A stretch of DNA of 64,000 bases from an uncultured bacterium (GTDB taxonomy: Bacteria > Patescibacteriota > Gracilibacteria > Absconditabacterales > Absconditicoccaceae), in assembly GCA_947168725.1 (NCBI GenBank), contig CAMVNA010000004.1, positions 10,110 to 74,109 of the forward strand, read 5' to 3'. Below, piece after piece: positions 6,748 to 55,351 of this stretch. The notes below the pieces were generated by a model. That model was given only the letters and a program-made list of their open reading frames with translations. It was not told the origin of the DNA and searched no databases. The first letter of the stretch is position 1, and the number at the start of each line of letters is the position of its first letter. The position numbers and the translations under genes are program-made.

Positions 6748-6774
6748 ATCTGACTTTATTTTTTGAGGTCCAAA

Positions 6775-7461: not shown

Positions 7462-7500
7462 AATACTACGAAACACCACATATTACACATAATTTTAAAT

Positions 7501-7535
7501 AAAAAAAGTCCTCGGATGGAAACATGCCGAGGACT
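7501..7535 (-). terminator. rho-independent terminator of the minus-strand RNA
   Basis: A perfect 9-bp stem (agtcctcgg/ccgaggact) followed by a T7 run when read on the minus strand. Confidence 0.7.
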
Positions 7536-7720: not shown

Positions 7721-7803
7721 ATATGCATAAGAAAATGAAAGTTAATTTCAAGAGAAAATAAATTAATTTTTATAGTTATCATCTACTAAGTCTATCATAT
7801 ATA

Positions 7804-7842
7804 CAAAAAATCTGACCGGACAATTAAGTCTAATCAGATTTT
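7804..7842 (-). terminator. possible terminator downstream of dnaK
   Basis: An aaaatctga / tcagatttt stem with a large loop, followed by a T-run on the minus strand. The stem is weak and AT-rich. Confidence 0.3.
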
Positions 7843-7859
7843 CTTTATTCTTTTATTAA

Positions 7860-9746
<1,887 letters not shown>

Positions 9747-12435: not shown

Positions 12436-12951
12436 TTACTTCAACTGAAAATACTTCTCTAAAATAATCTTAAACCGCTGAGTATAGCTTTCAGAATTCT
12501 CTACTATATTTTTTTTCAATTTTTCAATACTAATCCACTTATAATCGGCTACTTCACCTGGATTCAAATCCATTTCTCCATCATAATATCATAAAAACAC
12601 ATGATCATACTCATTTTCAATTAATCAATTATCAAAATGAGCGGTATAACGAAACTCAAATATTTCTTCTAAATCTGTATCGAATCACATCTCTTCTTGC
12701 AATCTTCTATGAGCTGCATCAATATTACCTTCGCCAGGAAAAGGATGTGTACAAGTTGCATTACTCCACAATCATCCACAATGATATTTGTTTAAAGCTC
12801 TCTGCTGCAAAAGCATTTCTCATTTCTGATTTAAGATTAAAACAGAAATTGCCCTATGCAATACTCACTTCTTATGCACATCCATTTTTTCTCAAAGTCA
12901 GATTTCTTTATCATCTTCATCTACCAATACTATCTCCAATTTATCACCCAT
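12436..12951 (-). CDS. idi: isopentenyl-diphosphate delta-isomerase, type 1 (Nudix fold)
   Basis: VLVDEDDKEIGLGEKMDVHKKGVLHRAISVLILNQKGEMLLQQRALNKYHCGGLWSNATCTHPFPGE...EYDHVF. Confidence 0.8.
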
Positions 12952-12984
12952 TCTCTTCTCAAAAATCCAAAATAAAAACTGCAA

Positions 12985-13191
12985 CTATTCATCATCCAAA
13001 GAGCTTCTTATATTTTCTATCATAATTCTAGACATTCACCTAGGGTCTTTCATAACATCATGAAGTGCTTTTAACCAATCATCATGAGAATAATGCTTTG
13101 ATGTTGTTGAATCTATAGACGCTTTTGATTCAGCCTCACTTTCATCTTTTTTTAATTCCTCTTCTCTAGGAACATCACAAGATTCATGCAT
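12985..13191 (-). CDS. small acidic hypothetical protein
   Basis: A 68-aa ORF (MHESCDVPREEELKKDESEAESK...). It ends with TAG in the same frame as idi, 11 codons upstream of the idi ATG. Confidence 0.3.
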
Positions 13192-13227
13192 TTCTTTTTA
13201 TAATTAATTAATAAAAAATTTTTCAAA

Positions 13228-13764
13228 TTACTTTTCATTTATAAACTCAGAAATTAAATCAAAAATCTGATCTTCTACTTCATTTATTAAATCCTTTTCA
13301 TTTGGTTTGAATTTTGAAAGAACATAATCCACAACCATATTTGAAGTAGCAGGTCTACCTACTCCAATTCTAATACGATTAAAATCTTTTGTTCATAATT
13401 TTTCTATTATGTTTTTTAATCCATTATGTCATGCAGAACTTCATCATTTTTTCAAAGCCACTCTTCATACTACGAAATCTATCTCATCATGAAGAACTAA
13501 AATATTTTCAGGTTTAATCCTGTAAAATTTAGCTAATGGTCATACTGATTCTCAGCTAAGATTCATAAATGTTTGAGGGAAACAAAAAATTACTTTGTCT
13601 TCAAAATCATCTGAAACTAAGATTTCAGCTTTCCATTTATTATCATATTTTAATTTTCAGAGTTTTTCCCAATCCAAAAATTTTTCAAGCATTTCTGCTC
13701 AAATATTGTGGCGAGTAGCCTTATATGATTGTCATGGGTTCCCAAGTCAAACTACTAGTTTCAT
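13228..13764 (-). CDS. pth: peptidyl-tRNA hydrolase
   Basis: MKLVVGLGNPGQSYKATRHNIG...FPQTFMNLSGESV...VLHDEIDF..GGSSAGHNGLKNI...RIRIGVGRP. Confidence 0.9.
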
Positions 13765-13952
13765 AACATAATTTTTATTAAAAAACAATTAATTATATAA
13801 ATATACTTATTCAAGTCTAGAAGAAAATTTTGACTTTAAAAATCATTAAAAAAGGAACCTAACGGCTCCTTTTAAGAAATTTTACTAAAGTATTCTATAG
13901 CTTCTCTACCTATCTCTTTTTTTACTATTTTTTCAGTAGATCCTTATACATT

Positions 13953-14492
13953 TTATTCTCTAAACTCATCTTCAGCTACTTCATCTCCATAAGTCACTCA
14001 CAGACTTCAATCAACAAAATCCGCAACACATTCAGCACTAATTGCATATCAAATTCTATTTTTTCTATATGTAATAACTCCATTTCTAACGAAACTAGCT
14101 CATCCTTCAGACTCTTCTCCCCATTTAATTGTCACATTTTCTGCTCATTCTACATAATCTTTTATCCATCACTGTGCACTTTCTTCACAACCAGCTAAAC
14201 GTTTTTCTTCTGTATCAATACTTGAAGTATCTGCTTCATAATTACACTCTCCATTCAAAACCATATCATCTTCACATCCTACTCCACTAGGAAATGTACA
14301 TTCTCCATAAACAGCAGTTTGAGAGTGAACTAATGAATGAGTTCCTCAATGCTCTAAACAGAAATCCATAGCTTGCTGTAATCTAACATCTACTTCTTTT
14401 TCTTCATTTTCACAGTTACAATTACTGTTACATCATGTCAAAGTTAAGACACACAATCACAAAGTAGTGATCAATAATCATGTTTTTTTCAT
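13953..14492 (-). CDS. lipoprotein with a Cys-rich DUF333-like domain
   Basis: Lipobox LTLTGC, in which the G is TGA. FCLEHGGTHSLVHSQTAVYGECTFPSGVGCED resembles the DUF333 / putative-hemolysin motif. Confidence 0.6.
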
Positions 14493-14569
14493 CTAAAAAA
14501 ATAATAAAATAAAAAACTGATTTATATTTAGTAAAAAAGCCTTAATTTTCAACTATAAAATCATCATCA

Positions 14570-15163
14570 CTATCCAAAAACACATTGACCATCAACAACT
14601 TCAGCTAGTTCAGTTTCCTCTTCTACTCAAGCAAAATCTAAATAACATTTATTGAAATATGTATTTCCATCTTTTCAGCAAACTATATTTTCTCACTGTG
14701 TATCACATCTTGCTAATTCTTCAACTATATCATCTTCATATTTCATATCTCATTTATGACAATCCCCTGCTGCTAGATTTCCAAGATAACAAAATGACTC
14801 ATCTGGATAGAAACAAACATCCTGTATATCTCATCATTCATTCCACTGTTGTACGCTTCATCACTCTTCTTCACACATATCCCTCACTACCGTAATTCGT
14901 TCTCATCATCCAGGATATAATAAATCACATCATCAATCTTCCATATCTTCTAAATAACAAAATTCATCATCAGATAAAATACAAATTTGATTTCAGTCAT
15001 CATCTGTGGAAATCTGTCCATCATTATCTATACATTCCTGCTCTGCTATTGGATATTTAATTTCTCTTTCCATCCCATCTCAATCCCAAATCTTAAAAAA
15101 ATCACAACCAGACAACACTCCTCATAAAATAGGAGTTAAGCAAATTAATAAAGTTTTTTTCAT
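14570..15163 (-). CDS. lipoprotein with Cys-rich repeats and a C-terminal Kazal-type inhibitor-like domain
   Basis: Lipobox VLSGC. The C-terminus CDTQGENIVCGKDGNTYFNKCYLDFAG...DGQC fits the Kazal signature VCG-x-DG-x-TY-x-N-x-C. Confidence 0.6.
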
Positions 15164-15182
15164 TTATATAATATTTTAAGAA

Positions 15183-15383
15183 TTAAATAACATAATTAGT
15201 TATAACAATAACTAGAGCAATCACTAAACATATAGGCCATGCCTCTTTAATAGTCCCTCAAATAGAGAACTTTCACTTACTTTTCTTTGAGAACTTTTTC
15301 TGTAAATATGATACTATTGTATACACGAACAGCACAATCAAATATTCAACAATAAATTCCATAATAAAGTTTACAACACTCAT
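15183..15383 (-). CDS. small membrane protein (hypothetical)
   Basis: A 66-aa ORF with two hydrophobic segments (FIVEYLIVLFVYTIV, WPICLVIALVIVI). Confidence 0.35.
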
Positions 15384-15488
15384 AATAACATATTAATATA
15401 TAAACACATAACTCATTCATAGTATTTTCTCTTGAAATTACAATACTTATAAAAATATATAAATTAATTTATCTATACAACAATCCAC

Positions 15489-15743
15489 ATGAAGAAAAAA
15501 CATAAAATACTCCACGTTAACAACAAAAAAATCAGAATTATTTGAGCAATTATATGTGTAATTGTTCTAGTATGTTTTGTTGCATGAATAGTTATATGAG
15601 TGATTTGATGACATAATTATGATATAAAATTAATGAAACTATGAATACGAACAAGTGTAATAGCCACAATATTTATGTGAATATTACATATCATATATTT
15701 CAGAACTCCAAAAAGACTTAAAAAGCTCTTATACAGTGAATAA
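15489..15743 (+). CDS. small membrane protein (hypothetical)
   Basis: An 84-aa code-25 ORF, verified codon by codon. Two hydrophobic segments are rich in TGA-encoded Gly. Confidence 0.4.
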
Positions 15744-15830
15744 AATCAAATTTATTTTCTCTTGCATTTTGTTCTAATAATTGTAGCATAACATCGTTAT
15801 AATTTTTTATCTTATAACAATTTATTAAAA

Positions 15831-16106
15831 ATGACAAAAACTGCATTAATCGAAAAACTAGCTGCAGAATTAGGAGTATCTAAGAGAATGGCTGGTGAAT
15901 TAGTTAACGCTTTCATCGAAACTGTAATGAAAGGAGTTAAAAAAGAAGGAGAAGTTAGAATCCAAGGATTCGGAACTTTCAAGAAATCTAAGAGAGCTGC
16001 TAGAACTGGAGTTAATCCTCAAAATCCAAAAGAGAAGATTAAGATTCCTGCTATGAACGTTGTAACTTTCAAAGCTGGTTCTGAATTCAAAGGACTTGTA
16101 AAATAG
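15831..16106 (+). CDS. hup: HU/IHF family DNA-binding protein
   Basis: Track ORF containing FGTFKKSKRAARTGVNPQNPKEKIKIPAMNVVTFKAG. It has no TGA codons and is followed by a terminator. Confidence 0.92.
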   Translation: MTKTALIEKLAAELGVSKRMAGELVNAFIETVMKGVKKEGEVRIQGFGTFKKSKRAARTGVNPQNPKEKIKIPAMNVVTFKAGSEFKGLVK

Positions 16107-32418: not shown

Positions 32419-32447
32419 TTGATTTTTTTGATAATTATATGTATAAT
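32419..32447 (+). promoter_or_regulatory. sigma70-type promoter (TTGATT-N17-TATAAT)
   Basis: The track ATG at 32439 lies inside this promoter, so the ATG at 32484 is preferred as the start. Confidence 0.5.
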
Positions 32448-32483
32448 CATTATAGTTTTTTAATTAATATCAAATTTTTATTA

Positions 32484-33875
32484 ATGGATAATATAGAACT
32501 ACTCAAATTAGAAGCAGATGAAATCAAAAAGTCATTAAATGAATTAAAAAATAATATTTCTATTTCTGAAGATGATAAAAGAAATAAAGCAAATCTACTA
32601 AATAGACGAGCGGAAAAAACAAAACAAAAAATTCAAAAAGAAATAGATTCTTTAACTGACAAAACAGATGAAGAATCGAAGAAGAAAAAAGAAGAAGCTG
32701 AAGCTCTTTTAAATAGTTTTAATGATATCACTGCCTTATATAATTCTATCATAAATCCTTCCTCAAACCCATGAACTCATGATTCAAGAACTCAAAGTTC
32801 TGAGCAAACACCAACTGAAAATAAAAACATATTTACAACAGCTACAGATTGGATAAAGACCCAACGAAACAATATATTAGATACAAAAAAACGAAAAGAA
32901 GAGTGACGAGAGAATTGATTTCGTTTAGCATGATTTGCAGCAACATGAATATGAGCACTTGGTCTAGCATATAAATGAGCAAAAAGCTTACGGAATTGGG
33001 CTTTTTGAAGTGATAAGAAAAAAGAAAAAACAGAATCTAAAAAAAAGAAAAAGAAATTTGGTGACAAATGGTATGGTAAGTTACTAAAATGGGCTGGAAT
33101 CACAACAGCAGCATGAGGATGAATTTATTTTTTAGGTAAGCATTTTAATTTATGGTGAAGTACAGACAATAATACAGACAATAATACAGAAAACCAACCA
33201 GCACAACAACAAGATAAAACTACAGAAAACTCTGAAGAAAAATCGAATGAAACAAAAGACTCAAAAGAGAGTTTTCAACCAACATCAGACAAAATATCAA
33301 ATGAAATGTTTGAGCAACTATTAAAAATGGAAGGAAAACACAAACAAGGCAACAACACCCTCGTCGCAAAAACTGGTAAACAATTTTGAGAAAAATTTCC
33401 TACATGACCTTTTGGTATGGTCTATAAACATATAGACAACGAAGGAAACTTACTTAAAAAAGCTATTCCTTTCAAAGAATGAGAAGAGGTAACAGAAGAA
33501 TGGGGAAGAAAAAATGCAAAAGCCTGCTATGACAAAAGAGCCAAAGAAATAAAGGAGGCATTCGATAATAAATGATACAAGTTATCACAAGATCAACTTG
33601 ATGCTCTTACATCTACATGCGGAGGAACATCTAAATCAAGAAAAAATTGTTTAAATTTTGTCCTGGAAAATTGGAACAATCAAAAAAAAGTCGTTGACTA
33701 CATCAGTACTCATTCCACTACTGCAGCATGAAATCATCAAGTTCAGCCTGGACTAGTTTACCGTAGAAAATTCGAAGCTGACTGGTTCGTATGAAACAAA
33801 ATGACTTTTGCAGAACATAGATCAATGCAAAAAAAATGAAAAAACACAAATCCTAATTACAGTCATTTAGCATAA
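32484..33875 (+). CDS. modular envelope protein 1: coiled-coil N-module + two Gly/Ala-rich TM segments + GH24 (phage/T4-type) lysozyme-like C-domain
   Basis: 463 aa. N-module MDNIELLKLEADEIKKSLNELK...ALYNSIINP. TM segments LAGFAATGIGALGLAY and WAGITTAAGGGIYFLG. The C-domain reads LLKMEGKHKQ...PFGMVYKH...QPGLVYRRKFEADWF, with the GLxxRRxxE..F ending typical of GH24 lysozymes. Confidence 0.7.
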
Positions 33876-33917
33876 ATAAATCAATCCATACAACTAATAT
33901 CAAAATATTTACAATAA

Positions 33918-34613
33918 TTATTTTCAAAAATTCTGACTCTCTAAACTATCATTCCACCGCTCAATAGCTTTTTCAAACTCCTGAACCGTAAACTGAGGAC
34001 AATACAAATCTGTAAAATAAAGCTGAGCATATCAAATTCGCCAAAGCATAAAACCTGACAACCTTTTGGCCAATTTTTGCTTTGTCCTAATAACCAAATC
34101 AACCGTTGGCAATCATCAAAAATCCATATACTTCTCTAAATTTTCTTTATTAATTTTTTCTCAAGAATCGTTTAATTTTTTCATTGCTCTCAAGATTTCA
34201 TCCTGTCATCCATAATTCACAGCTAAAACAAATATTCTCGAACTTTCTAAAAATTTAAATTCAGATTCTTTTTCCTCTAAAAAGTTTACCAAATGAGTCG
34301 GCAAACCAGATTTATCTCATGCTACACGAAAATTAACATGATTTTTACGCATCATATCATACAAATTTTCAGTAATCCTTTTATACAAATTAAAAAGATA
34401 ATTTAATTCCATTTTAGTTCTATTTTTTAAATTTTCCGTACTTAATCACCATAAAGTAAACACTTCAATAGTAGTATTTTCAAAAATATGAACAGCAAGT
34501 TCAATACATCTCTGAAAACCTTCTAAATGTCATTCCAAACTAGCCTTTCATAATTCTTTTGCCCAAGTTCTATTTCCATCAGGAATTAACGCTACATGTT
34601 TTGGATATTGCAT
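33918..34613 (-). CDS. uppS: undecaprenyl diphosphate synthase (isoprenyl transferase)
   Basis: HVALIPDGNRTWAKE...FTLWGLSTENLKNR...AVNYGGQDEI...DLVIRTKQKLAKRLSGFMLW. Confidence 0.9.
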
Positions 34614-34742
34614 TCAAAAAAACTAATATAAAACAAAGAAAATATATCAAATCAGATTATTTATTCAAGAATAGTATTTACACCAATAAATGATTTAATT
34701 CTCTTCCAATAAAAGAACTTTCAAAAAAAGTACCCCCTATTT

Positions 34743-34770
34743 TTGCATTTTTTTTAATTATGGATATAAT
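34743..34770 (+). promoter_or_regulatory. sigma70-type promoter (TTGCAT-N16-TATAAT)
   Basis: ttTTGCATtttttttaattatggaTATAAT lies 33 nt upstream of the ATG at 34803. Confidence 0.55.
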
Positions 34771-34802
34771 TGATTTGAATTGTTTAATTTCATAAAAATG
34801 AT

Positions 34803-36359
34803 ATGAACGATAATATTGACCTCTTAAAAACAGAGGTAGATAAAATCAAAAAATCATTAAATGAACTAAAAGATAATATCACTTTTTCTGAAACAGAAAA
34901 AAAAGACCAAGCTGAAATTCTAAACAAACAAGCAGAAGTAACAAAACAAAAAATTCAGAAAGAAATAGATTTTTTAGCGAACAAAACGGATGAAGAATCA
35001 AAAAGAAAAAAGGAAGAAGCTGAAGCTCTTTTAATTAGTTGTAATGATATCACCGCCCTATATAATTCTATCATAAATCCTTCTACAAGCTCAACAACTC
35101 AAAGTCCCAGTCAATCACCCACTGAGAGCACAAACATATTTACAAAAGCAAAAGATTGGATAAAAAACCAACGAAACAGCATCCTAGACAGGGGAAAGTG
35201 GAAAACAGAATGATGAAAAAATTTATTACGTGCAGCATGAGGTGCAACTTCACTTGTTCTGTTATATAAATGAGCTAAGAAATTATGGAATTGGGCATTT
35301 TGAGACAATGAGAAAGAAGATAACAACGAAAATTACGAAAGTAAAGAAAACACGAGTGAAAACGATGAAGAAAAAACAGAAGTAAGAACAAATGAAGAAA
35401 CAAATGAAGAAGAAAATAACAATAATGACAATTATGCGGAAACAACTGAAGGCAATACTAAAGAAGAAAAGAAAGAAAGCATCTGGAGTAAACTGTGGTG
35501 AAAAGCTTTAGCTTGGTTATGAATTGCACCTGCTGCTTGAACCGCTGCTGCCGCCTGAGCTGCTACCGCCTGAGCTACTGATAAAGAATCAGATTCATGA
35601 ACAAGCGAAGATGTGGGAAAAGATGAAAGTACATCTAATGAACCTGATAAAGAAAATAGTTCTGATCCTTCTACTAATACAAATGAACCTGAAAATAGTC
35701 CCGATAAAAAAGAATCCAACGAGAACACCACAAAAAAAGATACAAAAAATTCAACTAATTCTAATGAATCTAAAGAAGTAGATAAAGGAAAAAATACTTA
35801 TACTAATCCCATAAGTGGATTAACTTATAAACGTATTGATCAAGTTACAGACCCAGCAGGAAAATTGAGATACTCATGAAAAAGAAGTGGTAAAACTGTA
35901 GCCAATATTTGATGTTTACTAGCTTCTGGATGTACTGTAACCTCTGCTCTCTGCCCAGAAGTAACCTTAACAGATTGTTTTAATAATGTTAGACATTGGA
36001 CCGCCGATAAAGCTGTTGCAAAAATGTCGAACAATAAATGGAAATCGGAAGCTCTTTTATCATGAGAACATGGAAACAGAACAAAGACACAAGAACAAAA
36101 AGCAAAAGAAAAAATAATAGAAAACTTAAAAAAATGATATCCTGCTGTCATCGGTGCCAGACATTCAGGTATTGATGGAATAAATAACAGTATAGTATCA
36201 CAACATTACCGTGCTATTTTAGGTATAAGAACTGAAAATGGGAAGAATGAATTCTTCGTTTGAAATACTTATAAAAATGGATCATGAGGATGGATGGATG
36301 AAGATAAAATATTTAAAAACATGATACACGCTTCTATATTTACTCCAAATCAAGCATAA
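34803..36359 (+). CDS. modular envelope protein 2: same N-module + Gly/Ala-rich TM segments + acidic/Ser-Asn linker + C39-like (papain-fold) Cys peptidase C-domain
   Basis: 518 aa. The N-module is about 75-90 percent identical at DNA level to gene 32484. TM segments GGATSLVLLY and ALAWLGIAPAAGTAAAAGAATAGA. The C-domain has SGCTVTSALC (candidate Cys nucleophile) and SQHYRAILGIR (candidate His). Confidence 0.7.
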
Positions 36360-36394
36360 TAAATAATTTATTTTAATTTTTAATAAAAAATATT

Positions 36395-37786
36395 ATGACA
36401 AAAATCGAACAATTGGAAAGTAAGACATCTCAAATCAAAGATGATTTGAACAAATTAAAAAACGATGTTAATCTTTCAGAAGAACAAAAGAGAGAAAAGG
36501 CTCAAGAAATCTTTACTGGTGCAAAAGATATTGAACTGAAAATTAACGAACTGGAATCTCAAACATGAGAAGGATCACAAAGAGACACAGACAGAGCAAA
36601 ATTACTACTAAAAAATTTTGAAGAAGTAAAGACATTATATAACGATATAATGTGAGAAGAAACTAGGAATCAAAATCTAAATCAAAACAATACAAATCAA
36701 ATAGAGGATAAAGATCAAACAACGAATACTCCAACTTCTGAAGTTCAGGATGAAGACAAATCAATTTTATGAACAATTGGAAACTGGTTCTGAAGTGCAA
36801 AAGAATGGATATGAAACCAATGGTCAGATATATGGAATACAGATAAACGAAAAGAAGATTGACTGAAGAATTGATTACGTACAGCATGATTTTTATGAGC
36901 AGCTGGTTTTATATATGAATGAGCGAAAAGTCTGTGGAATTGGGCTTTTTGAGATGACGAGGAAGAACATGAAGAAAAAACAGAATCTAAAAAAAAGAAA
37001 TCTGGTGATAAACGGTATAGTAAATTGTTAAAATGGGCTGGAATCACAACAGCAGCATGAGGATGAATTTATTTTCTAGGTAAACATTTTAACTTATGGT
37101 GAAATGACACATCTATCGAATCACAAAAACCAGAATCTTCGACAGAAACCCAGATTGAACCTACTTCAGAGAATAAAAATAATAACCAGGAAGAAAAGCC
37201 ACAAACTGATAAAACATCAGAAAAACCAACCACATGAGAGCAAAAGACTGCAGAACAAAAGAATAATAATCAAAAAGAAAACTTACAAGTCAGTAATTCA
37301 TGATATACAACTTGAGAAGACTTAACTAAAAAACAACAAAACATTATGGGACAAAAGCTTAACAAAATAAATTCTCCAATTACAGTAAAAATGGTACAGG
37401 ATTCTTGTAGTACTCATAATGTACCAGTTGAATACTTATTAGGTTTTATGCAAAATGATAGCAGTTTATGAACAAAATGAAAATGAGCAAAAACCCATAA
37501 TCCATGAAATGTATGAAACACCGATAGTTGAGGTACCAAAGATTTTTGAACACGAGAAAAATGAGTGGATGCTTGTGCAGAAAATCTAGAGAAACGTATC
37601 GTCGCCTACTCCAAAGCAAAAAAAGAACATAATTGAAAGTGATTTAATGACTTCCCTACTCCTAAAGAATTAGCCACATGAAAAAGCGAGGGATGAACCA
37701 AATTTTTTGGAGTTTACATGACAAGTAAAACTTGACCAACTAATGTTACAAAAATAATAAATTCTCGAGCTGACTCTTTATCATAA
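36395..37786 (+). CDS. modular envelope protein 3: divergent coiled-coil N-module + the same TM2 block as protein 1 + lysozyme-superfamily-like C-domain
   Basis: 463 aa. LKWAGITTAAGGGIYFLGKHFNLWG is encoded by a block about 94 percent identical to 33081-33159. The C-domain reads VPVEYLLGFMQNDSSLG...HNPGNVGNTD...ACAENLEKRI (SLT/glucosaminidase-like motif order). It is a paralogue of 42072..42890. Confidence 0.65.
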
Positions 37787-37850: not shown

Positions 37851-37879
37851 TTGACAAAATTTATTCAAAATGAATATAA
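37851..37879 (+). promoter_or_regulatory. consensus promoter AAAAATTTGACAAA-N17-TATAAT
   Basis: TTGACA at 37851-37856 and TATAAT at 37874-37879. Confidence 0.6.
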
Positions 37880-37917
37880 TAAAACTATAATATTTTATCA
37901 TATTAACCACATTAACA

Positions 37918-40681: not shown

Positions 40682-40709
40682 TTGACAAATTAAAAATTTT
40701 AATTATAAT
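40682..40709 (+). promoter_or_regulatory. consensus promoter AAAAATTTGACAAA-N16-TATAAT
   Basis: TTGACA at 40682-40687 and TATAAT at 40704-40709. Confidence 0.6.
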
Positions 40710-40766: not shown

Positions 40767-42026
40767 ATGTCCAAAGATACATACAAATGAGAGGGAAAAA
40801 AAGAAGTAACAGAACACCGTAAAACCGAGTGACGTTCAACTGAAGTCGAAAAAAAAGAATATAAAGAGAACAAAAAGCAAAAGAAAGAATCATCAGAACA
40901 AGAAGTAAATAAATCAAAACAGCAACTTACAGGTTTAGAAAAATGGTTAAAAGAATATAAAAAAATAGAAAAAAGGAAAAAAGAATTAGAAGAAGAAATA
41001 TTAATATATTTTAAGAAAAAATGAAATAATATTAAAAATGAAGTAAAAAAGGATACAGAAACAGAAAATAAAGTAAAAAAGGAAAACGAAGAAGAACCAA
41101 AGAAAAAACATAGAAAATGGAGAGAAAAATACAAAAAAGCGTTAAAAGAAAAAGGAATATTATTAACAAACAAAGAGCGAGAAAATATAATTAAAAAACA
41201 TGATAAAAAAGAATTTAAACATTTTTATAAAGACTTAAAAAAAGCAATAAAAAAAGATGAAATAGATAAATTTTTAAAAAAATGGAAAAATAAAGGTTTT
41301 GATGGTTTATTAGAACAATTTTCAAAAGAAGACAAAAAAGAAAAGAAAAAAGAAAAGAAGGAGAAAAAAAGCTCACATAAGCATAGAAAACATTCGAATA
41401 AATCAACAGATAACTCTTCAAGTTCAAGTGGATGATCTTCTTCTGAATCAACAGACAACTCTCCAAGTTCAAGTGGAGGATCTTCCGATTCAACGGACAA
41501 TTCTTCAGAATCAAATAATGAATCCTCTGAAACAAATAATTCCTCAGAATCTGAAAACAACTTAAATGCTTATACAAATGAATATATACCTGAAGAAAAA
41601 GTAAAAGAAGCTCGAGATTATATTGCAAACTGATGAACATTTCATTCCCCTAGTAAATGAACTATTAAGTGGGGTCGAAGTGATTATAAGCATGTTTGTT
41701 CAACTTGATCATTTAATGTATTATGGAAATTAGGATTACCAAAAGTATCCAATTCTACTGAATGTGATTTAAAATGAAAAATATTACCAAAAATGGGGTT
41801 AAAATATATTTGAGAAGTAGATCCAGACAATCCGGAAAAAGATTGATATAAACCACAGAATTGAGACACAGCAGTACGGCCAAGATTCAATGGTACTCAA
41901 CATCAAGCTACATTTATAAATTGACATTGGGTATCAGACACCATACAGAAGAAAATGTCTTGTTATAACGCAAAAAATGAACCAAATGTTAAAATATATC
42001 GCTATACATGAGAACAGACTGCTTAA
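40767..42026 (+). CDS. Lys/Glu-rich coiled-coil protein with Ser-rich linker and papain-fold (NlpC/P60- or CHAP-like) C-domain
   Basis: 419 aa, frame verified. It has about 200 aa of K/E-rich helix, STDNSSSSSGGSS repeats, then YKHVCSTGSFNVLWKLGLP (Cys) ... GTQHQATFINGHWVSD (His). The long minus-strand track ORFs here are shadow ORFs. Confidence 0.6.
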
Positions 42027-42071
42027 TATTGCATTAATTCATAATTATTTATTATTTATCATTCATTTAAA

Positions 42072-42890
42072 ATGATAGAAGTCGAGCAAAACAATAATCA
42101 AGAAAAAGAAAGTTATGAAAACACTCTCAAAAAAGTTGAGACAGAGATTGCTGAATTAAATGATGACAATGTAGATAATGACAAGATTGAATTAGACTGA
42201 CTACTCACACAGTGATTTGCGGAATATCTCTGAGCAGAAAAAGCAAAAAAAATCCTTGATTCCATTAGTAATATGGAAGACAAACCTGAATGATTACAAC
42301 AACTTGAAGATTTCCTTAAATCTGCTTCGTTATCTTTGAATCAATGAATAGGTGAAAATGAGAGACAACAAGAAAACCTTATTAAGTGACCTGATAAGTA
42401 TATATATTGATATAATTTAACAGAAAATCATCTAAATAAGATATCAAATACGTTTAAAAAGCTAAACTCTCCATTGGAACCACAAATGATAAAAGATTCT
42501 TGTTTAAATTTTCCTTATCTACCTGCCGAATATCTTTTGTGATTTATGCAAAACGATAGTAGATTATGAACTGCCTGAAAAAGAGCAATAAATAATCATA
42601 ATCCATGAAATGTATGAAATACTGATGACTGAAAAAATAGGTATTTTGAAACACGGGCAGATTGAGTTAATGCTTGCGCAGAAAATTTAAAAAAACGTAT
42701 TGATGCTTATTCTAAAGTAAAAAAAGAACATAATTGAAAATGATTCAACGATTTTCCAACTCCAGAAGAATTAGCAACTTGAAAAGCTAAAGGTTGAACT
42801 AGATTTTTTGGAGTTTATATGACAAATCCTAGTTGACCATCGACTGTTGCGTGAATAGTAAATCATCGAAACAAAAAACTCAGAACATAA
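42072..42890 (+). CDS. short paralogue carrying the lysozyme-superfamily-like C-domain of protein 3
   Basis: 272 aa. LPAEYLLGFMQNDSRLG...HNPGNVGNTDDG...ACAENLKKRIDAYSKVKKEHNGKGFNDFPTPEELATGK, about 78 percent DNA identity to 37420-37780. The N-terminal GLLTQGFAEYLG...LQQLEDFLKS motif is shared with gene 44716. Confidence 0.65.
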
Positions 42891-42971
42891 TATTTTCAAA
42901 AATTATGTGTGCTATCTTTTGTTATAATGGACAAAATTTATATGAAGATGCTAATGAGAAAATCTTAATTA

Positions 42972-43448
42972 TTATAGATTTAAGCTAGCTAATTCACATT
43001 TATCTCAAATATGGAGTAATCATTTTTCACTAATTAATCATTGATTAATTTCTAGAACATATTGAGCTTCTGTTTTTGGTTTATATGATGGACATTCATC
43101 AGTTTTACAAGGATCCATTTGGATAATATCTACGATTTTCAAATCTGAATCTAATCGAATTCACGCAAGTGGAATAAGTGTATTTTTCATCCAAAACGAA
43201 TAAGTTCACATTTTATCGAAAATAAAAAACATTCAATTTTCATCAGGCAGTGATTCTCTATACATGAGTCATAATTGGCGAGATTCATTATCATCTGCTA
43301 TTTCAATATTGAAACAACTTTCATTACAACAAATCTTTGGAGTTTGATTTTCTGTTTTTCATGCTTCATATTTGAATACGAGAAAAGATGTGATTAAAAG
43401 TAAGATGAATATCGTTATTCAGATTATGATTCTTAATGATTTTTTCAT
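42972..43448 (-). CDS. DUF192 domain protein (membrane-anchored or secreted)
   Basis: An N-terminal TM segment, then ADDNESRQLGLMYRESLPDENGMFFIFDK...FWMKNTLIPLAGIRLD. Confidence 0.65.
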
Positions 43449-43477
43449 GGCATGGTTATACTTGATAAAATTTATGA

Positions 43478-43538
43478 GGTAACCTCACCCACCACTACGT
43501 ATTTTCTCTCTCCTATTAAGAGAGGGGGTGGGGAGAGC
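43478..43538. repeat. GC-rich palindromic repeat element, copy 2 (intergenic)
   Basis: AACCTCACCC...CTCTCTCCT-att-AAGAGAGGGGGTGGGGAGAG. It shares AACCTCACCC, the CTCTCCTAWTARGAGAGGG palindrome and a GGGAGAG tail with the reverse complement of 25323-25436. Confidence 0.65.
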
Positions 43539-43541
43539 TTT

Positions 43542-44234
43542 TTAAACATATCTCCACTCTCCTTCTGATAAATCGTTTGGTAAAGTGTATTGAGCTTCTT
43601 TAATACGCTGTAAATCTATCAAATGATATCATAAGTTTTTAATAACTCTCCTTATATGGCGTTTTTTTCATTCATTTAAAATCACTTTATATATAAGTAG
43701 CTGTTTTGTTGGCTGAATATCCAGGAATTTTAACTGTTCTCATTCATCGATGATTCAGCTTTTTACTTTTTGCTTATCTTCAGCTTTGAATGGGGAAGAA
43801 AGCTGGATGAGATACTCTTTTTCGACTTCAAATTTTGGATGTTCAAATTGGTGGACTAATGATGGAGTGTCTGTAAGCAACACCAATCCACGACTATCCT
43901 TATCCAGACGTCCAATGTAGTACCAATTTTTAAACTGTTCTGGAAGTAATTCATAAATTGTAGCATTATGGGGATCTGATTTGGAAACTACATATCATTT
44001 TGGTTTATTGAAAATAACCAATTTTCATTTCAGTTTGCTACCATCTTCTGAAATTATAATATTTTCTTTACTTCAATTTTCATTTATAAAAATAAGAACA
44101 TCTCCGTTTTCAAGTTCAGATTTAAATGATTCCATTTTTTCATTATTTAAAAAAATCTGACCATTTTGAATGAGTGACACAATTTTACGACGTGATCGTC
44201 ATTTAGAATTTTGCAAAAATGGAATAATTTGCAT
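43542..44234 (-). CDS. pseudouridine synthase, RsuA/RluB family (S4 domain + catalytic domain)
   Basis: SRRKIVSLIQNGQIFLNN (S4-like), VIFNKPKGYVVSKSD and YYIGRLDKDSRGLVLLTDT. Confidence 0.85.
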
Positions 44235-44324
44235 AAAATAGACCAAAATTTAAAGATTCTTTTACATTCTATATGGGTATATTTTTATTTTTTTATTTCA
44301 AGATATAAAAAAGTCCCCAAAAAT

Positions 44325-44353
44325 TTGACAAATTTTATAAATTTGGCTATAAT
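44325..44353 (+). promoter_or_regulatory. consensus promoter AAAAATTTGACAAA-N17-TATAAT
   Basis: TTGACA at 44325-44330 and TATAAT at 44348-44353. Confidence 0.6.
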
Positions 44354-44394
44354 TTAGTAGATAAATTTAATCATTTATAATATCAAAAAACAAA

Positions 44395-44697
44395 ATGACA
44401 AAAAAAGATTATTTAATAAAAATTCTAGAAAACCTCGAATCAATCTGGGACTTGGCTCCAGGTCTAAAAATACTTGTTGAACAATGAGCCCTATGAGATG
44501 ATACACTAGACACTCTCATTAGTGCTGTAGAATCTGGGATTCATTCCGCAAGATCTGAGGTTGCAAAATTAAAAATGAAAAAATGATTAGACGCATTGGA
44601 TAAGATGAAACAAATAGAAAAACAAAGCGCTATGCAAGATGAAAAAGAGTTAATAGAATTAGATAAACTAATAGACGGTTTATCAGACGATTTTTAA
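44395..44697 (+). CDS. small helical hypothetical protein
   Basis: A 100-aa code-25 ORF directly upstream of the large PG-binding protein. It looks coiled-coil-like (KLKMKKGLDALDKMKQIEKQSAMQDEKELIELDKLI). Confidence 0.5.
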
Positions 44698-44715
44698 TCC
44701 TTATTTGTAATTAAT

Positions 44716-47103
44716 ATGACTTTTGAACAATTTGGTGAATCTACTGCGGCAACTACTCCATTAGTAACAACAAATGGTGAACCAATTACGCCCGATGGTA
44801 ACGCAACTACAACCACAAATACTGGCGAGACACAAACAACAACTGTTGAACAAGGGCCTGATGCTGATTTAAATCAAAGATATGAAACTGTTAGACAAGA
44901 ACTACTTCAAGTCGGTGGAGTTGATACAAGTGACGATAATATCGAAATCGCTGATTGACTTCTAGATTGAAAATTTGCCGAATATTTACTAAAAAACGAA
45001 ACATCTCTGAACGCGCTGAAATGATTTGTTAATACGATAAAAAAAGATTGACTTAAAAACAAAGCTTGAAATGATTTAAAAAAATTAGAAGACTTCCTAA
45101 ACAACATCTGAAATAATGAGAAGATGGAAAAGGATTTCAAAAAATTTATGGATAAATTACAGAAACCAAAAGATTTACATAAAGTTAAAGAAAAAGAACT
45201 TAGTGCTATCACCATGCACCTATCATTGAATCAAAACGATGCAATGCTTGCATATAAAAGTATGAAAGCCATTCTTGACAACCATCAAAACTTTTTTGGT
45301 ACAGGTATGAAATTGGATGATGTAAATGTTTTTCAAGCTGTTTGGAATTCATTAAAGAATAATTACCAAAATAATGAAACATTCATTGAAGCAGAATACC
45401 CTGGATATTCAGCATTATCTGATAGAGCGATCAGTATTCAAGCATTTCTTATGGCAAATAAATGAATAATATCTTGACCATGACTAGAATGGGAATGAGA
45501 TGAGATAACAGTAGCACATCTAGAGAACAAACCTAACTCTATAGTAAGCAGAGAAGCAATTGTTACTAAACTTAACGAACTCAACAACCAAAGAGTCGCT
45601 AAAAATAAAAGTTTAGTAGAAGCTGTGGACATCAACATACCAACTGCAGACTTTACTAAAACAGCAGAATGAGGGTTAAAGTTTAAATGAACTGAATTCT
45701 CAGCAAATGATGTGATGATGTATAGTGATGAAATAAGTGCGGCAGTTAATGGTGGAGATTTTGTAAATGATAAAGAAAAATGGAGAACTATAAATGAATG
45801 TAGAAATTCATTATATGAAAAAATTAAAGCAAAATTATTAGCTGATCCTTCAGTAGCACAAGAAGGTTCAACAAACAACCCTAGTCAAAACACTAATCCT
45901 GAACAAAACACTAACCCTGGTCAGAACACTAATCCCGAACAAAACACTAACCCTGATCAAAACACTAATCCTGAACAAAACACTAATCCTGATCAAAACA
46001 CTAATCCTGATCAAACTAATGAAACATGATGAGAAAATGTTGAACTTGATGCAAGGTTGAATCTTAAGAGTAGTGTAAAAAATAAACTTGTAGAATTATG
46101 AATTTTCGAAAACGCTGAAAGCCATACAGTAAAAGAACCAGCTATGAAATCTTTTATCGATACCATAAAAGATAAACCATGGAGTGAATTACAAGGTCAA
46201 GGACATGTAGACAAGAGAGCATGGATTGCCACAGTACAAATAGCATTAAATTTTATAGGCGTAAAAAATGAGAAAAGTGAATACAAAGTAAAAACAATTG
46301 ACTGAATACGTGGTAAAGAAACAAGGAGGGTCATCAGAGCATTCCAAAAAGATAACGAATTGGGAGTAGATGGTAAACCATGACCAAAAACTCTTACCAA
46401 AATTTTAGAAACACTTGGATGAATCAGAAGTAGTAATGAATCTACAACGAACAAACCAAATGAAAAAGTTTTTGACTATGATAGTGCTACATCATTAGAT
46501 AATACAAAGGTTCAAGAAATTTTGGATGCTCGTAAAAAATATGATGAATCTGATGAATGAAAAAATGATAATAACGTACGTGTGCTCAAATTAAATGGGC
46601 TTACTAGCCTAACAGAAGAAAATGCTACTGCTCTATCTGCATGGGAATGAAATATACAAGTTAATAAACTATTAACAGATGCAGCTGGTGAAAAAGGTGA
46701 ACAAACCATAACAGTATTAAGCAAGCTAGCACCTAAAGGTGGTAAAGCTATTATCGAGACTTCAGATAAGGATACTTTCGATAAATTGAAAGATAAATGA
46801 TTTGAACTCAAGCTAATAGAGACAACTCAACCTGAGACTCCAACTGAGACTCCAACCGCAACTGAGACTTCAACTGAAACTCCAACCGCAACTGGGACTT
46901 CAACCGAGACTCCAACCGCAACAGAGATTTCAACTGAGACTCCAACCGCAACTGAGACTTCAACTGAGACTTCTGTACAGACTACAACTACAGTGGACAA
47001 CAATAACAGTGTAACTGTTTGATGAGATAACAATTGAACCATTATACAAGATAATGACTCCAGTGTCACCAACAATAGCACAGTAGACGACATGGGAGAC
47101 TAA
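44716..47103 (+). CDS. large surface protein with peptidoglycan-binding (PG_binding_1-like) domain and two tandem-repeat linkers
   Basis: 795 aa, joining track ORFs 44716, 45124 and 45712 in one frame. AWIATVQIALNFIGV...IDGIRGKETRRVIRAFQKDNELGVDGKPGPKTLTKIL is a PG_binding_1 pattern. It carries NTNP(E/D/G)Q and TETPTATETS repeats. Confidence 0.7.
45886..46014 (+). repeat. 18-nt coding tandem repeat (about 7 units, QNTNPE/D)
   Basis: Units of caaaacactaatcctgaa with synonymous or near-synonymous variation. Confidence 0.85.
46831..46972 (+). repeat. 30-nt coding tandem repeat (about 4.5 units, TETPTATETS)
   Basis: Units of actgagacttcaactgagactccaaccgca. The minus-strand track ORF 46827..47093 is its shadow. 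Confidence 0.85.
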
Positions 47104-47151
47104 AAATAATTATTTATCAAAATTGTACTTTTATATTTATAATGTATTAAA

Positions 47152-50100
47152 ATGTTAATTTACAAAAGAGCTAACTTTGCACCAAATGGATGACCTGAAC
47201 AACAATCTCAGGAACCCACACCTGAAGTAAAAATCCAGGATCTCAAAAGAGAAATCAAGGAATTAAGTGATAATGATGCTAAAAATGATGGATTCGAAAG
47301 TAAGATCATCGTCGACAACCAACTTAATGGCTCATTAAGTACTGAATTATTAAAACCTGAAAATAAAAAAACTCTCAATAACCTAGTAAAAGAGCTTTCT
47401 AAAATCCTTGAGAAAAAAAACTATGACACAAACGGTGCAGATTTATTAAATTTATTAACTTGAGTACAAAAAAAAGCTGAATTTAATAGACTCAATAAAA
47501 TTATGACAAATCCAAAAGAAGCAGGAGGAATAAAACTAGATGATTTATGAAAATTTAATGATCAAGAAATAAAGTTGGTTTGTGATTATATAAAGGATAA
47601 TATTGTATCTCCTGAATGTGCAAACTTACATAAACTGTTTGTTACATATAAATCCATGGAACAAAGCATAACCGACAAAAAAGCAAAAGAAAATTTTCTA
47701 AATATTCAAAAATCACTATTAGATTCTTGATGAAATTCTACTGTTGCAGTTGAAATAGAACTATCTCATAAACAATTAGCTGAAATTTTTACAGATTTAA
47801 GCGTTGAAAAATTTAATTCAATAATAACAGAATATACGAACCTTACTGATTGGAAAGGTACTCCCCTCGAAGGACAGATTGGATTTAAAAATAATTGAAA
47901 AAATTTTACTGAAGGTGAATTTGTTGCATATTTTAATGGAGCTAATGAATCCAGAAAACAAGCTAACGAAGCAATAGCTACTGATTTCCGTCTATGAGAT
48001 ATAACACAAGATACATTGAAAAATTTTAGAGTTAAAGATAATAAATTGCTCTATAACTGACAACCATGTAGAAACGAGGATATCAAGGCAGTTTTTTGAG
48101 AGACAAAAATCAATCCAGCATTAAAAGAATGAATTTTCTTTTGAGATGAAAAAGCAGCTATTGAATCAAAAATCTGTGACAAAATAACAAATGAGATAAA
48201 GGATAAACTTCAGAATTCAGATCAAGAGGTAAATAAAGAAAAATGGACTATGAAACCTGAAAACTTTGACAAAATAAAAAGTACCCTATGAGACAGAATG
48301 TTTATTAATATGGATGCTGAAGATAAGGTAACCTATATTCCTCAAAAAGCCAAAGCTTACCTATCAGAATATAGAAATAAAGAATGGCAAGATATCAAAA
48401 AAGACTTTAACACACCAAACTGAATGGCTTATGTCGCAGCCTTACAAATTTTATTGAATGTTGATCATGACGCAAATATAAACGTAGATGGAATATGGAA
48501 ATATAGTGGACAAACCCAAGAAGCAGTAAGAAAATTCCAAGAAAATTATAATAACAATTTGCCAACAGATTGAGTAAAAATAGAAAAAGTAGATGGACTC
48601 CCATGAAAGATAACATTAGAAGCTCTACTTGATGGTCAATATGGAGATGCCGGACTCGACGGACAATGGAAAGTAAATCCAGATTGAACATGAGAATTTT
48701 TAGACTGAACAGAAATCAAAGAAAAAGATGGTAAAAAGTATATTACAATAGATGGACAAGACTATTATGAATACACAGAAGGAATGGAGGGACCGGGATA
48801 TCGATTTTGAAAGAATGATGATCATGACAGTCGACTTTATGTTTGAAATTTTAAAAATGGGAAATCACAATGAGAATGAACTTGTACTCGAAATAATTGA
48901 GAGAAATATGTATGAAAACGAGAGAAAGATTGTAGAACAGAGTGAACATATACTTGGCCTGCCGGTACTCCCGATAATTTCCGTGAATATGTATGAAAAT
49001 TTGATTATAAAAATGATAAATATGTAATGACTGATTGAACGATGACCTATGAAGATAACGATAAATATAAGTGAGCATTTAATGAAAAAAATGAAAAGCA
49101 GTGAAAGTGAACATATACTTGGGCTAATTGAAATATCCTCAATTGAACTTGGGAGAGGGATCATCTTGAGGGAGAAGGTACAGTTTCATTCCCTAATACT
49201 GACATACCTGATCTAAAAGTAGTTTTAGATGGAGATAAATTAAAAGTAACATCTGACTTACCAGCATTTAAAGATAAATTAATTTATGTCGAAACATGAG
49301 AATTTGTCGATGCTACTAACACAACTCCTGAGGCACCAGAGAAGAATCCTGCCGTCGTTGAATGAATTTGAAAGTTTGAAGGTGATACATTCAAATTTGA
49401 TAATGTAAATGAATTAAATGGAAACAAGTATGTGAATATATGATGAAAAAATTACTATGAATACAGAAATGGTATGAACGGTGACTGATATATGGTAGTC
49501 CCAAAGACAAACGAGCATTCTGCATATGTATTATATTGACATTACGAAAATGGAGTAATCATGAATTGAACTGTACATGATGCAGAGGGAAATAAATATG
49601 AATGAGAATTCAAAGATGGTGAACGTTCTTGAAAATGAAAGGCAACGATGTTTGACTGAACAACTTTGTCATGTGACACGTTTGTAAAGGGTCTTCCTAC
49701 ATGAAAATGTACTATTGAATATTGAAGTTCAGAGGACTGGAAAGATGAACTTGGAAAATGGGAAAAATATGAATGAGAAATACAAAACAGAGTACCTTCT
49801 TGAAAAGATTGAACTATGACTTGGAAAAACTGAGACAAATATACATGAGAATGGAAGGATGGAAGAATGGACTGAGATTGAACTTATACTTTCCAGAACG
49901 GTACAACAATCGAATGAACAATTGTTTGAAAATTTGAAAAAGGAAAGCTTACAACATGAACTCTTACCTTTAAGGATTGACAAACATTCAACTGAGCATT
50001 TAATGAGACTTGGACTCCTGATACAGGAACTTTCAAAAAAGATCAAAATGATCAAGGGGTACATGTAGAATCAGATGAAGTTTGATTAAAGGATGATCAA

Positions 50101-50193
50101 GGTAACTACGTTTATAGACGAGAAGGTCAGATGCCAGCTACAAACCAAGCTTCTTCAAGAAGAAGAGAGTAATAGCTCCAGATCAATTATAAT
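47152..50193 (+). CDS. giant surface protein: PG-binding domain + MORN-repeat array
   Basis: 1013 aa, with the frame checked at six positions. YVAALQILLNVDHDANINVDGIWKYSGQTQEAVRKFQ...VDGLPGKITLEALL is PG_binding_1-like. There are many YxGxxxxGxxxGxG units (e.g. GDKYTGEWKDGRMDGDGTYTFQNG), with most Gly residues encoded by TGA. Confidence 0.7.
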
Positions 50194-50218: not shown

Positions 50219-50253
50219 TAATTACATCCGGTTTATACTGGATGTAATTTTTT
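50219..50253 (+). terminator. rho-independent terminator
   Basis: An attacatccgg-tttata-ctggatgtaat hairpin followed by T6. The T-run abuts the ATG of the next gene. Confidence 0.7.
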
Positions 50254-54383: not shown

Positions 54384-54412
54384 TTGACAAAGTTTAATAT
54401 TTTGTATATAAT
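54384..54412 (+). promoter_or_regulatory. consensus promoter AAAATTTGACAAA-N17-TATAAT
   Basis: TTGACA at 54384-54389 and TATAAT at 54407-54412. Confidence 0.6.
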
Positions 54413-55323: not shown

Positions 55324-55351
55324 TTGACAAATAAAAAATTTTGTATATAAT
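55324..55351 (+). promoter_or_regulatory. consensus promoter AAAAATTTGACAAA-N16-TATAAT
   Basis: TTGACA at 55324-55329 and TATAAT at 55346-55351. Confidence 0.6.

Follow-up and report, generated by a model that had tools for sequence, protein, structure and literature searches.

Those bacteria within the candidate phyla radiation (CPR) that use genetic code 25, the Absconditabacteria and Gracilibacteria, are thought to live attached to other bacteria or to prey on them, and we know of essentially no molecules that account for the breach of the host wall or for host specificity in these organisms. For Vampirococcus, an epibiotic predator of the CPR, it has been proposed that attack on the host and attachment to it involve secreted peptidoglycan (PG) hydrolases and giant surface proteins (PMC8080830). 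The described systems closest to the locus analyzed here are the papain-like amidases, such as Tae3, CHAP and NlpC/P60, relatives of which serve, for example in the virion lysins of phages, to break through the walls of other cells; the GH73 (PF01832)/FlgJ/AcmA and SLT families; the wall-binding proteins with PG_binding_1 (PF01471) and MORN (PF02493) domains; and the LXG proteins with their Lap partners of type VIIb secretion (for the principle, see PMC10801868), together with the PE/PPE proteins of the mycobacterial ESX systems. The present locus belongs to an uncultured bacterium of the family Absconditicoccaceae and lies in a stretch of 64,000 nucleotides (nt) of contig CAMVNA010000004.1 (positions 10,110 to 74,109), hereafter the window. 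Five plus-strand genes of this locus, g40767, g42072, g44395 (small100), g44716 and g47152, encode proteins that resemble these systems in predicted fold, in domains or in gene order.

The folds and domains of these proteins, their paralogy, the operon structure, the rule by which a small helical gene precedes a large one and the hypervariability of the large proteins are observations of the present analysis. The reading to which we tentatively incline, with somewhat less than even confidence, is that of a strain-variable island of PG-directed hydrolases and adhesins at the cell envelope or at the interface with the host, the products of which would be exported without leader peptides. Wall hydrolases and PG-binding surface proteins are the kind of toolkit that is expected of a host-dependent CPR bacterium; the novelty lies in the families themselves, in the cassette with its small protein, in an architecture that dispenses with leaders and in the hypervariability among strains. 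The genes and domains that carry this reading are the following (aa, amino acids):

40767-42026, plus strand: g40767, 419 aa, with a K/E-rich N-half, a Ser/Asn-rich repeat linker and a C-terminal papain-fold domain
41580-42023, plus strand: probable Tae3/CHAP-like papain-fold cysteine amidase domain of g40767 (aa 272-419), with Cys311, His379 and Asp391 as the candidate triad
42072-42890, plus strand: g42072, 272 aa, with an N-terminal helical motif and a C-domain paralogous to that of g36395
42186-42317, plus strand: N-proximal motif of g42072, IELDGLL..FAEYL...LEDFL (aa 39-82)
42357-42881, plus strand: putative lysozyme-superfamily (GH73/SLT-like) domain of g42072 (aa 96-270)
44395-44697, plus strand: g44395 (small100), 100 aa, the all-helical leader protein of the cassette
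44716-47103, plus strand: g44716, 795 aa, with a helical N-module, NTNPEQ repeats, PG_binding_1, a further domain and TETPTA repeats
46231-46401, plus strand: PG_binding_1 domain of g44716 (aa 506-562; Pfam E = 4.3e-11, 43.3 bits against a cut-off of 23)
47152-50172, plus strand: g47152, 1006 aa, with an N-module paralogous to that of g44716, a PG_binding_1-like domain and a C-half that is duplicated internally and contains two MORN blocks
48433-48636, plus strand: PG_binding_1-like domain of g47152 (aa ~428-495; 19.4 bits, where the cut-off is 23)
48838-50031, plus strand: two MORN repeat blocks of g47152 (aa 563-685 and 793-960; ~11 units)

All these gene models depend on the genetic code. 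Under translation table 11 the region dissolves into short open reading frames (ORFs) on both strands, fragments only; when TGA is read as sense, coverage of the window by ORFs of at least 100 aa rises from 9% to ~100%. The TGA codons in the MORN repeats of g47152 occupy consensus Gly positions, residue 366 of g40767 (TGA, in an invariant GD motif) is Gly in 7 of 7 standard-code homologues, and six TGA positions of g42072 carry Gly in both standard-code references. Because TGA falls on the consensus Gly of MORN and on the Gly columns of standard-code homologues, we read UGA as glycine and not as tryptophan, that is, as code 25, which is not known outside the Absconditabacteria/Gracilibacteria part of the CPR; the 64-kb window was found to contain neither a tRNA nor an Rfam family that might confirm the code directly. 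With UGA as glycine, and only then, the five plus-strand genes are present as they had been described in a preceding reading of the sequence without database searches (the sequence-only reading), except that g47152 had been given an end at 50193 and 1013 aa; its stop lies 21 nt away, at 50172, leaving 1006 aa from the first ATG.

The N-terminal half of g40767 is rich in lysine and glutamate, as that reading had stated (50% K+E over residues 1-205), and the Ser/Asn-rich linker carries a 45-nt repeat. No Pfam or PHROG match was found for g40767, and its C-terminal 150 aa had no sequence match in the PDB either. The 34 close homologues of the C-terminal domain (55-76% identity) are all unannotated and lack Pfam matches, and the wider family, as delimited by an exhaustive profile search of 1.84 billion representatives, comprises 38 proteins. 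Among 34 diverse sequences of this wider family, a Cys, a His, a Ser-Asp pair, a Gln, a Tyr and an Arg are invariant, the Cys, His and Asp corresponding to Cys311, His379 and Asp391 of g40767. The AlphaFold2 (AF2) model of the standard-code homologue P0065 (predicted local distance difference test (pLDDT) 84, predicted TM-score (pTM) 0.78) places the Cys at the N-terminus of a helix that is followed by a beta-sheet bearing the His, an alpha+beta papain-like fold. When this model was compared to the PDB with Foldseek, the first match was Tae3 from Ralstonia pickettii, an amidase effector of type VI secretion (4hzb/4hz9; probability 1.0, E = 4e-3 to 7e-3, target TM-score 0.55-0.66), and the weaker matches were papain-like proteins, CHAP amidase, Tse1, Tae4 and NlpC/P60. 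Among predicted viral structures, the top match was a protein of Campylobacter phage CP220 annotated as a hypothetical membrane protein (E = 1.3e-4); a gp27 baseplate hub, a tape measure protein and several lysins also matched, these being positions of virion-associated lysins. Remote relatives in IMG/VR phage contigs form the last ~130 residues of proteins of 2022 aa (L018 172-6240) and 1006 aa (L023 21-3041), which share the motif GHICM..G..W.SDF.Q and, judged by their length, are presumably virion proteins. Below the thresholds, remote members of the family score 15.7-18.7 bits for CHAP (cut-off 26) and 18.2 bits for Amidase_5 (cut-off 21), and in one of them, P0084, the domain is combined with Hydrolase_2, PG_binding_1 and Peptidase_M15_4/VanY.

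Judged by the modelled fold and the active site, the papain-fold amidase-like domain that had been proposed for g40767 is well supported, even though no curated family model matched it, and we consider the C-domain a probable papain-fold cysteine amidase. Tae3 itself is said, after work by Russell and colleagues in 2012, to cut the cross-link between meso-diaminopimelate and D-Ala (mDAP-D-Ala) of peptidoglycan. The g40767 domain resembles Tae3, CHAP and NlpC/P60 in its predicted fold, small, papain-like and of the alpha+beta type, in which a helix begins with the nucleophilic Cys and a subsequent strand bears the His, and its family shares with them the invariant Cys and His and an acidic third residue. 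It differs from the CHAP and Amidase_5 models in that no curated match exceeds the gathering score. From Tae3 it differs in having neither a type VI secretion system (T6SS) context nor a Tai-like immunity gene, in its host, presumably a monoderm-type CPR bacterium, in its fusion to a 270-aa K/E-rich and Ser-rich N-terminal region and in the narrowness of its family. The genes found beside the papain-fold gene in the window and in contigs L001-L002, L005-L009, L011, L013, L015 and L035 are those for DUF192, RluB, UppS, MiaA and modular hydrolases.

Public protein collections translate this lineage with UGA as Trp (database proteins P0001-P0051). Among the 34 homologues of the g40767 domain, 32 carry 7-11 Trp-for-Gly errors per 150-aa domain, and two truncated ones carry 5 and 8; such translation probably suppresses Pfam matches. 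An AF2 model built on P0018, with Trp at the UGA positions, reached a pLDDT of 49, as opposed to the 84 of P0065, and was discarded as unusable; because the alignment of P0065 was also more diverse, mistranslation and alignment depth are confounded in this comparison. The practical lesson is that UGA translated as Trp in public databases probably hides domains from profile searches.

The second gene, g42072, had been described as lysozyme-like and as sharing its C-domain with g36395. The latter relationship is clear (59% identity to aa 290-462 of g36395, E = 7e-67), and 17 homologues of the domain were found. As to the former, all weak matches of the family fall within the lysozyme-like group of families and some members carry PG_binding_1 fusions, but none of the matches is significant or reaches a gathering score; a lysozyme-like nature of the C-domain is plausible. 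g42072 itself has no Pfam match. The best relative, P0016, matches Glucosaminidase with 26.6 bits (cut-off 30.2), and SLT_4 is matched with 19 bits (cut-off 27), sub-threshold matches to these two families arising in two distant members; single members gave further matches below threshold, to MltC (E = 0.012) and to a PHROG transglycosylase (E = 0.07). Two members, P0005 and P0007, have the g42072-type domain fused to PG_binding_1, and such fusions, like the weak matches, are points in common with GH73 and SLT proteins. Read by eye, the xFMxNDSxxG...HNPGNVGN of the family resembles the xxLESGWG...NNLFGIK of GH73; in the family motif FMxNDS...HNPGNVGN the Asp is nearly invariant and the Ser invariant, and in g42072 this part reads MQNDS (aa 159-163), with the Asp at position 162. 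Both a direct sequence search and a profile search with the GH73-like alignment were negative for this domain in the PDB, and searches of PHROGs and NCBIfam with the GH73-like profile gave only hints with E > 0.01.

At its other end, g42072 was claimed to have an N-proximal motif in common with g44716. The motif recurs in relatives, the pairwise match being weak (E = 0.006): the stretch in g42072 matches the N-terminus of the 833-aa protein L006_11254 with 46% identity (E = 3.6e-9) and was also regained by iteration of a hidden Markov model. In g44716 and g47152, the same GLLxxxFAEYL...LEDFL lies within the first ~80 residues of the N-module, and the stretch is found, apart from g42072, in unrelated-looking large proteins of relatives.

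The two large proteins were expected to combine PG_binding_1 with repeat linkers and MORN repeats. For g44716, Pfam confirmed PG_binding_1, which lies between the two repeat linkers that had been noted (an 18-nt unit repeated 7.3 times and a 30-nt unit repeated 4.7 times). For g47152, the MORN array stood (Pfam 74.5 bits against 22.5, E = 2.8e-21), but its own PG_binding_1 match remained under the cut-off; the orthologue L001_14063 reaches 40.8 bits for PG_binding_1, and the PG_binding_1-like region of g47152 matches L006_14089 by BLAST with E = 1.6e-13. A relative with both MORN and PG_binding_1 is also present in L029. Endolysin families of PHROG match the PG_binding_1 region of g44716 (three of the four matches fall between about aa 500 and 600, and phrog_1493, the best, covers aa 361-619), and phrog_7324 matches g47152. 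The N-modules of g44716 and g47152, of ~330 aa, are homologous (hhalign probability 81%, E = 1.3e-5, 302 columns), and because the regions upstream of the PG-binding domains are thus related, we regard the two proteins as distant paralogues. Their Pfam matches and the modular, repeat-linked layout are those of PG_binding_1 and MORN wall-binding proteins. They differ from such proteins, as known from endolysins and bacterial surface proteins, in having neither a catalytic domain nor a signal peptide, in the novel helical N-module, in the small helical leader gene and in extreme allelic divergence.

Downstream of PG_binding_1, the domain of g44716 resembles in sequence one or two ankyrin repeats: residues ~608-665 (window ~46540-46710) gave repeated but insignificant ankyrin/DARPin matches (E 0.2-0.9), and PDB searches with two segments of the protein yielded nothing beyond these.

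The most regular feature of the locus is small100, the conserved leader of a recurrent two-gene cassette. The 100-aa helical protein that had been noted at 44395 is present; it has no Pfam or PDB match, and its alignment profile yielded nothing relevant in the PDB and only scattered, chance-level matches in Pfam. The protein database holds 369 clusters of the small100 family at 90% identity. In the window and related loci, the next gene downstream of small100 is a large gene on the same strand in 21 of 21 copies, after a gap of 2-19 nt, usually of exactly 18; these genes encode 358-1231 aa where complete, 6 of the 21 ending at a contig edge. Their products carry PG_binding_1 only, MORN with PG_binding_1, a Rib domain or unrecognized domains. 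The cassette thus resembles LXG with Lap and PE/PPE in that a helical gene of ~100 aa lies directly upstream of one for a leaderless protein, and also in the conserved helical N-terminus, the polymorphic C-terminus and the multi-copy family. It differs in that no sequence similarity is detectable and no ATPase of a type VII secretion system (T7SS) was seen, so that the likeness is one of architecture only. By hhalign, small100 does not match the N-modules of the large proteins (probability 0.5%) or the 132-aa leader of a 1168-aa protein in L025, and we conclude from these negative comparisons that neither is a hidden small100 paralogue.

Several neighbors of the cassette family deserve mention. 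The C-domain of g32439 (gene 32439-33875) has, by eye, the look of a GH24 phage-type lysozyme (LLKMEG...T.G.FG...RR..E..WF), with no Pfam match, and a C-domain of this type also follows a small100 copy in L008 (10177-11253). The 646-aa protein at 5880-7820 of L029 combines the N-terminal helical motif, PDKPDT repeats, a calpain-type Peptidase_C2 domain (E = 4e-7) and PG_binding_1 below the cut-off (21.0 bits against 23; E = 3.9e-4). An N-terminal helix of g32439, g34803 and g36395 (32439-37786) aligns weakly with the C-half of small100 (hhalign probability 52%, E = 1.4e-4, 38 columns), with a common ...KE.AE.LL..F ending that could reflect either a fused helper or K/E composition bias.

Comparison with related contigs sets a stable backbone against variable large proteins. 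In every related contig the backbone runs from DUF192 and RluB through small100, with one or two large proteins behind it, to an SbcC-like ATPase, HIT and RlmN. DUF192 is 73-97% and the pseudouridine synthase 82-96% identical in relatives; across species, backbone proteins are 73-91% identical, whereas the large proteins are 25-39% identical or unalignable. The divergence extends to close strains. In contig L035, the backbone proteins of which are 96-100% identical to those of the window, the counterpart of g44716 is 85% identical, with ~100% over residues 1-350, 64-76% over residues 401-550 and 46% in the C-terminal repeat, and that of g47152 (12770-15832) is 54% identical over the full length, ranging from 18% to 90% per 50 residues. 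From the sequences, the mosaic in g44716 and g47152 suggests allelic replacement or recombination, and it is the pattern to be anticipated for proteins that are exposed and either subject to diversifying selection or often recombined.

The hydrolase slots vary as well. g42072 is absent from L001, L006, L025, L029 and L032, whereas L005 has two g42072-like genes, upstream of the papain-fold gene and not downstream. On the 3' side of its papain-fold gene, L005 encodes at 6101-9695 an Amidase_3 protein and two SLT proteins with lipobox-like leaders, where the window has g42072, which is leaderless, in the corresponding slot. Further genomes have the papain-fold gene either behind a modular hydrolase of the g32439 kind or next to UppS or MiaA. 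Taken over the relatives, the same slots hold Amidase_3, two SLT proteins, a Rib domain, a calpain-like protease with PG_binding_1 and MORN with PG_binding_1. The slot upstream of DUF192 in other genomes encodes a protein of 106-132 aa and then the 1168-aa protein (L025 2633-6580), which has a Gly-zipper/hydrophobic C-terminal region.

None of the five plus-strand proteins contains a hydrophobic segment fit for a signal peptide or a transmembrane helix; the DUF192 protein (transmembrane segment aa 7-25) and g29128, both encoded in the window, do have hydrophobic segments. Because all five proteins are devoid of Sec signals, export would have to follow a leaderless route. The folds and domains, the fusions in relatives, the co-located wall enzymes and the hypervariability lead us to suppose that the proteins act on or at peptidoglycan outside the cytoplasm; we infer the enzymatic activity, the extracellular location, the target (host or self) and the role of the small protein. 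Under this model, g40767, as a cysteine amidase or endopeptidase with Cys311, His379 and Asp391 as its catalytic residues, would cleave stem peptides or cross-links, and g42072, probably the second PG hydrolase of its transcription unit and a member of the lysozyme superfamily, would act on the glycan strands. Together, the hydrolases may open peptidoglycan locally, at the cell wall or at the site of contact between epibiont and host, while PG_binding_1 would hold g44716 and g47152 on murein, where these proteins could serve as anchors or adhesins, and their diversifying C-terminal parts, the repeat linkers and MORN arrays, may contact the surface of a partner or host. The N-proximal helical motif and the small helical protein could form a targeting or chaperone pair in the leaderless route.

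Several observations weigh against this model. The Foldseek E-value to Tae3 is modest (4e-3), and the model compared is that of a ~48%-identical homologue rather than of g40767, the 48% having been measured to the related P0063. No hydrolase domain in the window's own proteins exceeds a curated Pfam threshold. The g42072 family departs from GH73 and SLT in having no gathering-score match and in the negative hhalign comparison of its GH73-like profile with Escherichia coli FlgJ, and the position of the expected catalytic Glu is apparently occupied by Asp (in the NDS motif, as read by eye). The extracellular location is an assumption made for five proteins that have no signal peptides, no export machinery was identified in the window, and small100 shows no detectable similarity to any known family of chaperones or secretion substrates. 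Finally, the papain-fold domain is highly conserved (55-81% identity), as much in keeping with an autolysin for housekeeping as with a weapon.

Such conservation is one reason to consider that the locus serves routine wall maintenance, the hydrolases being the cell's own autolysins for growth or daughter-cell separation and the PG-binding proteins structural components of its own murein with no role toward a host. We regard this as rather unlikely. In its favor, the papain-fold gene is present in a single copy per locus and strongly conserved, the locus is embedded among genes for RluB, MiaA, UppS, the SbcC-like ATPase, RlmN and DnaN, and the Amidase_3 and SLT proteins with lipobox-like leaders that fill the slot in relatives look like typical autolysins. 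However, a difference of 46% between strains whose neighboring genes are 96-100% identical is not expected of wall-maintenance proteins, nor is the swapping of MORN, Rib and calpain-like modules between genomes, and the proteins most similar to the amidase in structure, namely a T6SS effector and virion lysins of phages, are weapons that attack foreign walls. A cytoplasmic function, in which the amidase recycles imported muropeptides in the manner of the NlpC/P60 protein YkfC and the PG_binding_1 and MORN proteins bind a partner other than murein, appears very unlikely to us. The complete absence of signal peptides and transmembrane segments would agree with a cytoplasmic location, and this organism, like CPR bacteria in general, is presumably an auxotrophic scavenger (PMC8080830), but exposed proteins are typically marked by modules such as PG_binding_1, Rib and MORN, by repeat linkers rich in Thr and Pro and by hypervariability between strains, and relatives fuse the enzymatic domains to PG-binding and other wall-lytic domains.

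An interbacterial polymorphic-toxin system, in which the small protein and the N-module make up a composite secretion signal, in the way of Lap and LXG in type VIIb secretion or of the mycobacterial PE/PPE pairs, and the variable C-termini are toxins or adhesins directed at competitors or hosts, would explain the leaderless large proteins with a common N-module and swapped C-terminal modules, the small helical gene that invariably lies directly upstream, the large paralogous family, and the cassettes of L008 and L011, which bear a mod1-type C-domain, with PG hydrolase domains on the same kind of N-termini. Nevertheless, we find it distinctly improbable: no Pfam similarity to LXG, WXG100 or PE/PPE was detected for g44395 or the N-modules, no EssC/EccC-type ATPase was found in the 64-kb window or in flanks of up to 10 kb (by-eye reading of the ten largest proteins and the gene tables), none of the adjacent genes was recognized as immunity-like, the modules of g44716 and g47152 are binding modules rather than recognizable toxin domains, and in a brief literature search at the level of abstracts we found no paper in which type VII secretion is reported to be encoded in Patescibacteria. 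The leaderless PG hydrolases and PG_binding_1 domains, typical of endolysins, the PHROG matches to g44716 and g47152 and the relatives of the amidase domain in phage virion proteins could also point to the remnant of a prophage lysis module or virion lysin, with endolysin-like proteins released through a holin. This seems to us scarcely credible, and was rejected: there is no holin, small100 has no transmembrane segment, no phage structural, integrase or packaging genes were found in the window or in the syntenic loci, the PHROG endolysin matches center on PG_binding_1, and the genes reside in a chromosomal backbone conserved across species.

Within the preferred reading of a PG-directed island at the host interface, the analogy with LXG-Lap and PE/PPE suggests a further step, namely that small100 and the shared N-terminal helical motif could constitute a system, not described before, by which code-25 CPR bacteria export or target proteins without leaders and deliver a polymorphic repertoire to the epibiont-host interface. 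This is a speculative proposal that we consider unlikely, if worth stating. Its cargo would consist of rapidly recombining PG hydrolases, proteases and PG-anchored adhesins, with MORN, Rib, calpain-like and GH24-like modules. Two CPR papers, checked by keyword, make no mention of MORN proteins, PG hydrolase effectors or leaderless proteins of such kind. Should the cassette prove to be an export or targeting device, it would represent a new secretion logic in a phylum for which we found no such description, and allelic variation in proteins such as g47152 would set host range. More generally, the locus offers candidates for the breach of the host wall and for host specificity: a Tae3-like amidase family otherwise found only in phage virion lysins, a second putative glycosidase family, and a multi-copy cassette of a small helical and a polymorphic leaderless protein, the members of which differ sharply between near-identical strains.

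The genes are organized in two transcription units, g40767 with g42072 and g44395 with g44716 and g47152, as delimited by two perfect promoters and a strong terminator. The units are separated by two genes on the opposite strand, both of which are matched by Pfam in agreement with the sequence-only reading:

40682-40709, plus strand: sigma-70-type promoter of unit 1, a perfect TTGACA-N16-TATAAT, 57 nt upstream of the start codon of g40767
42972-43448, minus strand: gene for a DUF192 protein with an N-terminal hydrophobic segment, part of the backbone (Pfam E = 4e-26)
43542-44234, minus strand: gene for a PseudoU_synth_2 pseudouridine synthase, RluB-like, part of the backbone (Pfam E = 7.5e-19)
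44325-44353, plus strand: perfect sigma-70-type promoter of unit 2, 41 nt upstream of the start codon of g44395
50220-50249, plus strand: intrinsic-terminator-like hairpin with a 13-bp stem and a T-run, which closes unit 2

Within unit 2 the intergenic gaps are 18 nt (g44395/g44716) and 48 nt (g44716/g47152). The share of the window devoted to envelope-targeting proteins had been overestimated as nearly a third; the eight envelope genes amount to 12,177 nt, or 19%. Perfect TTGACA-N16-18-TATAAT promoters occur five times in the window, at 37851-37880, 40682-40709, 44325-44353, 54384-54412 and 55324-55351, compared to 0.17 expected from shuffled sequences, and each begins with TTGACAAA; the -35 element of this lineage seems to be unusually canonical and extended.

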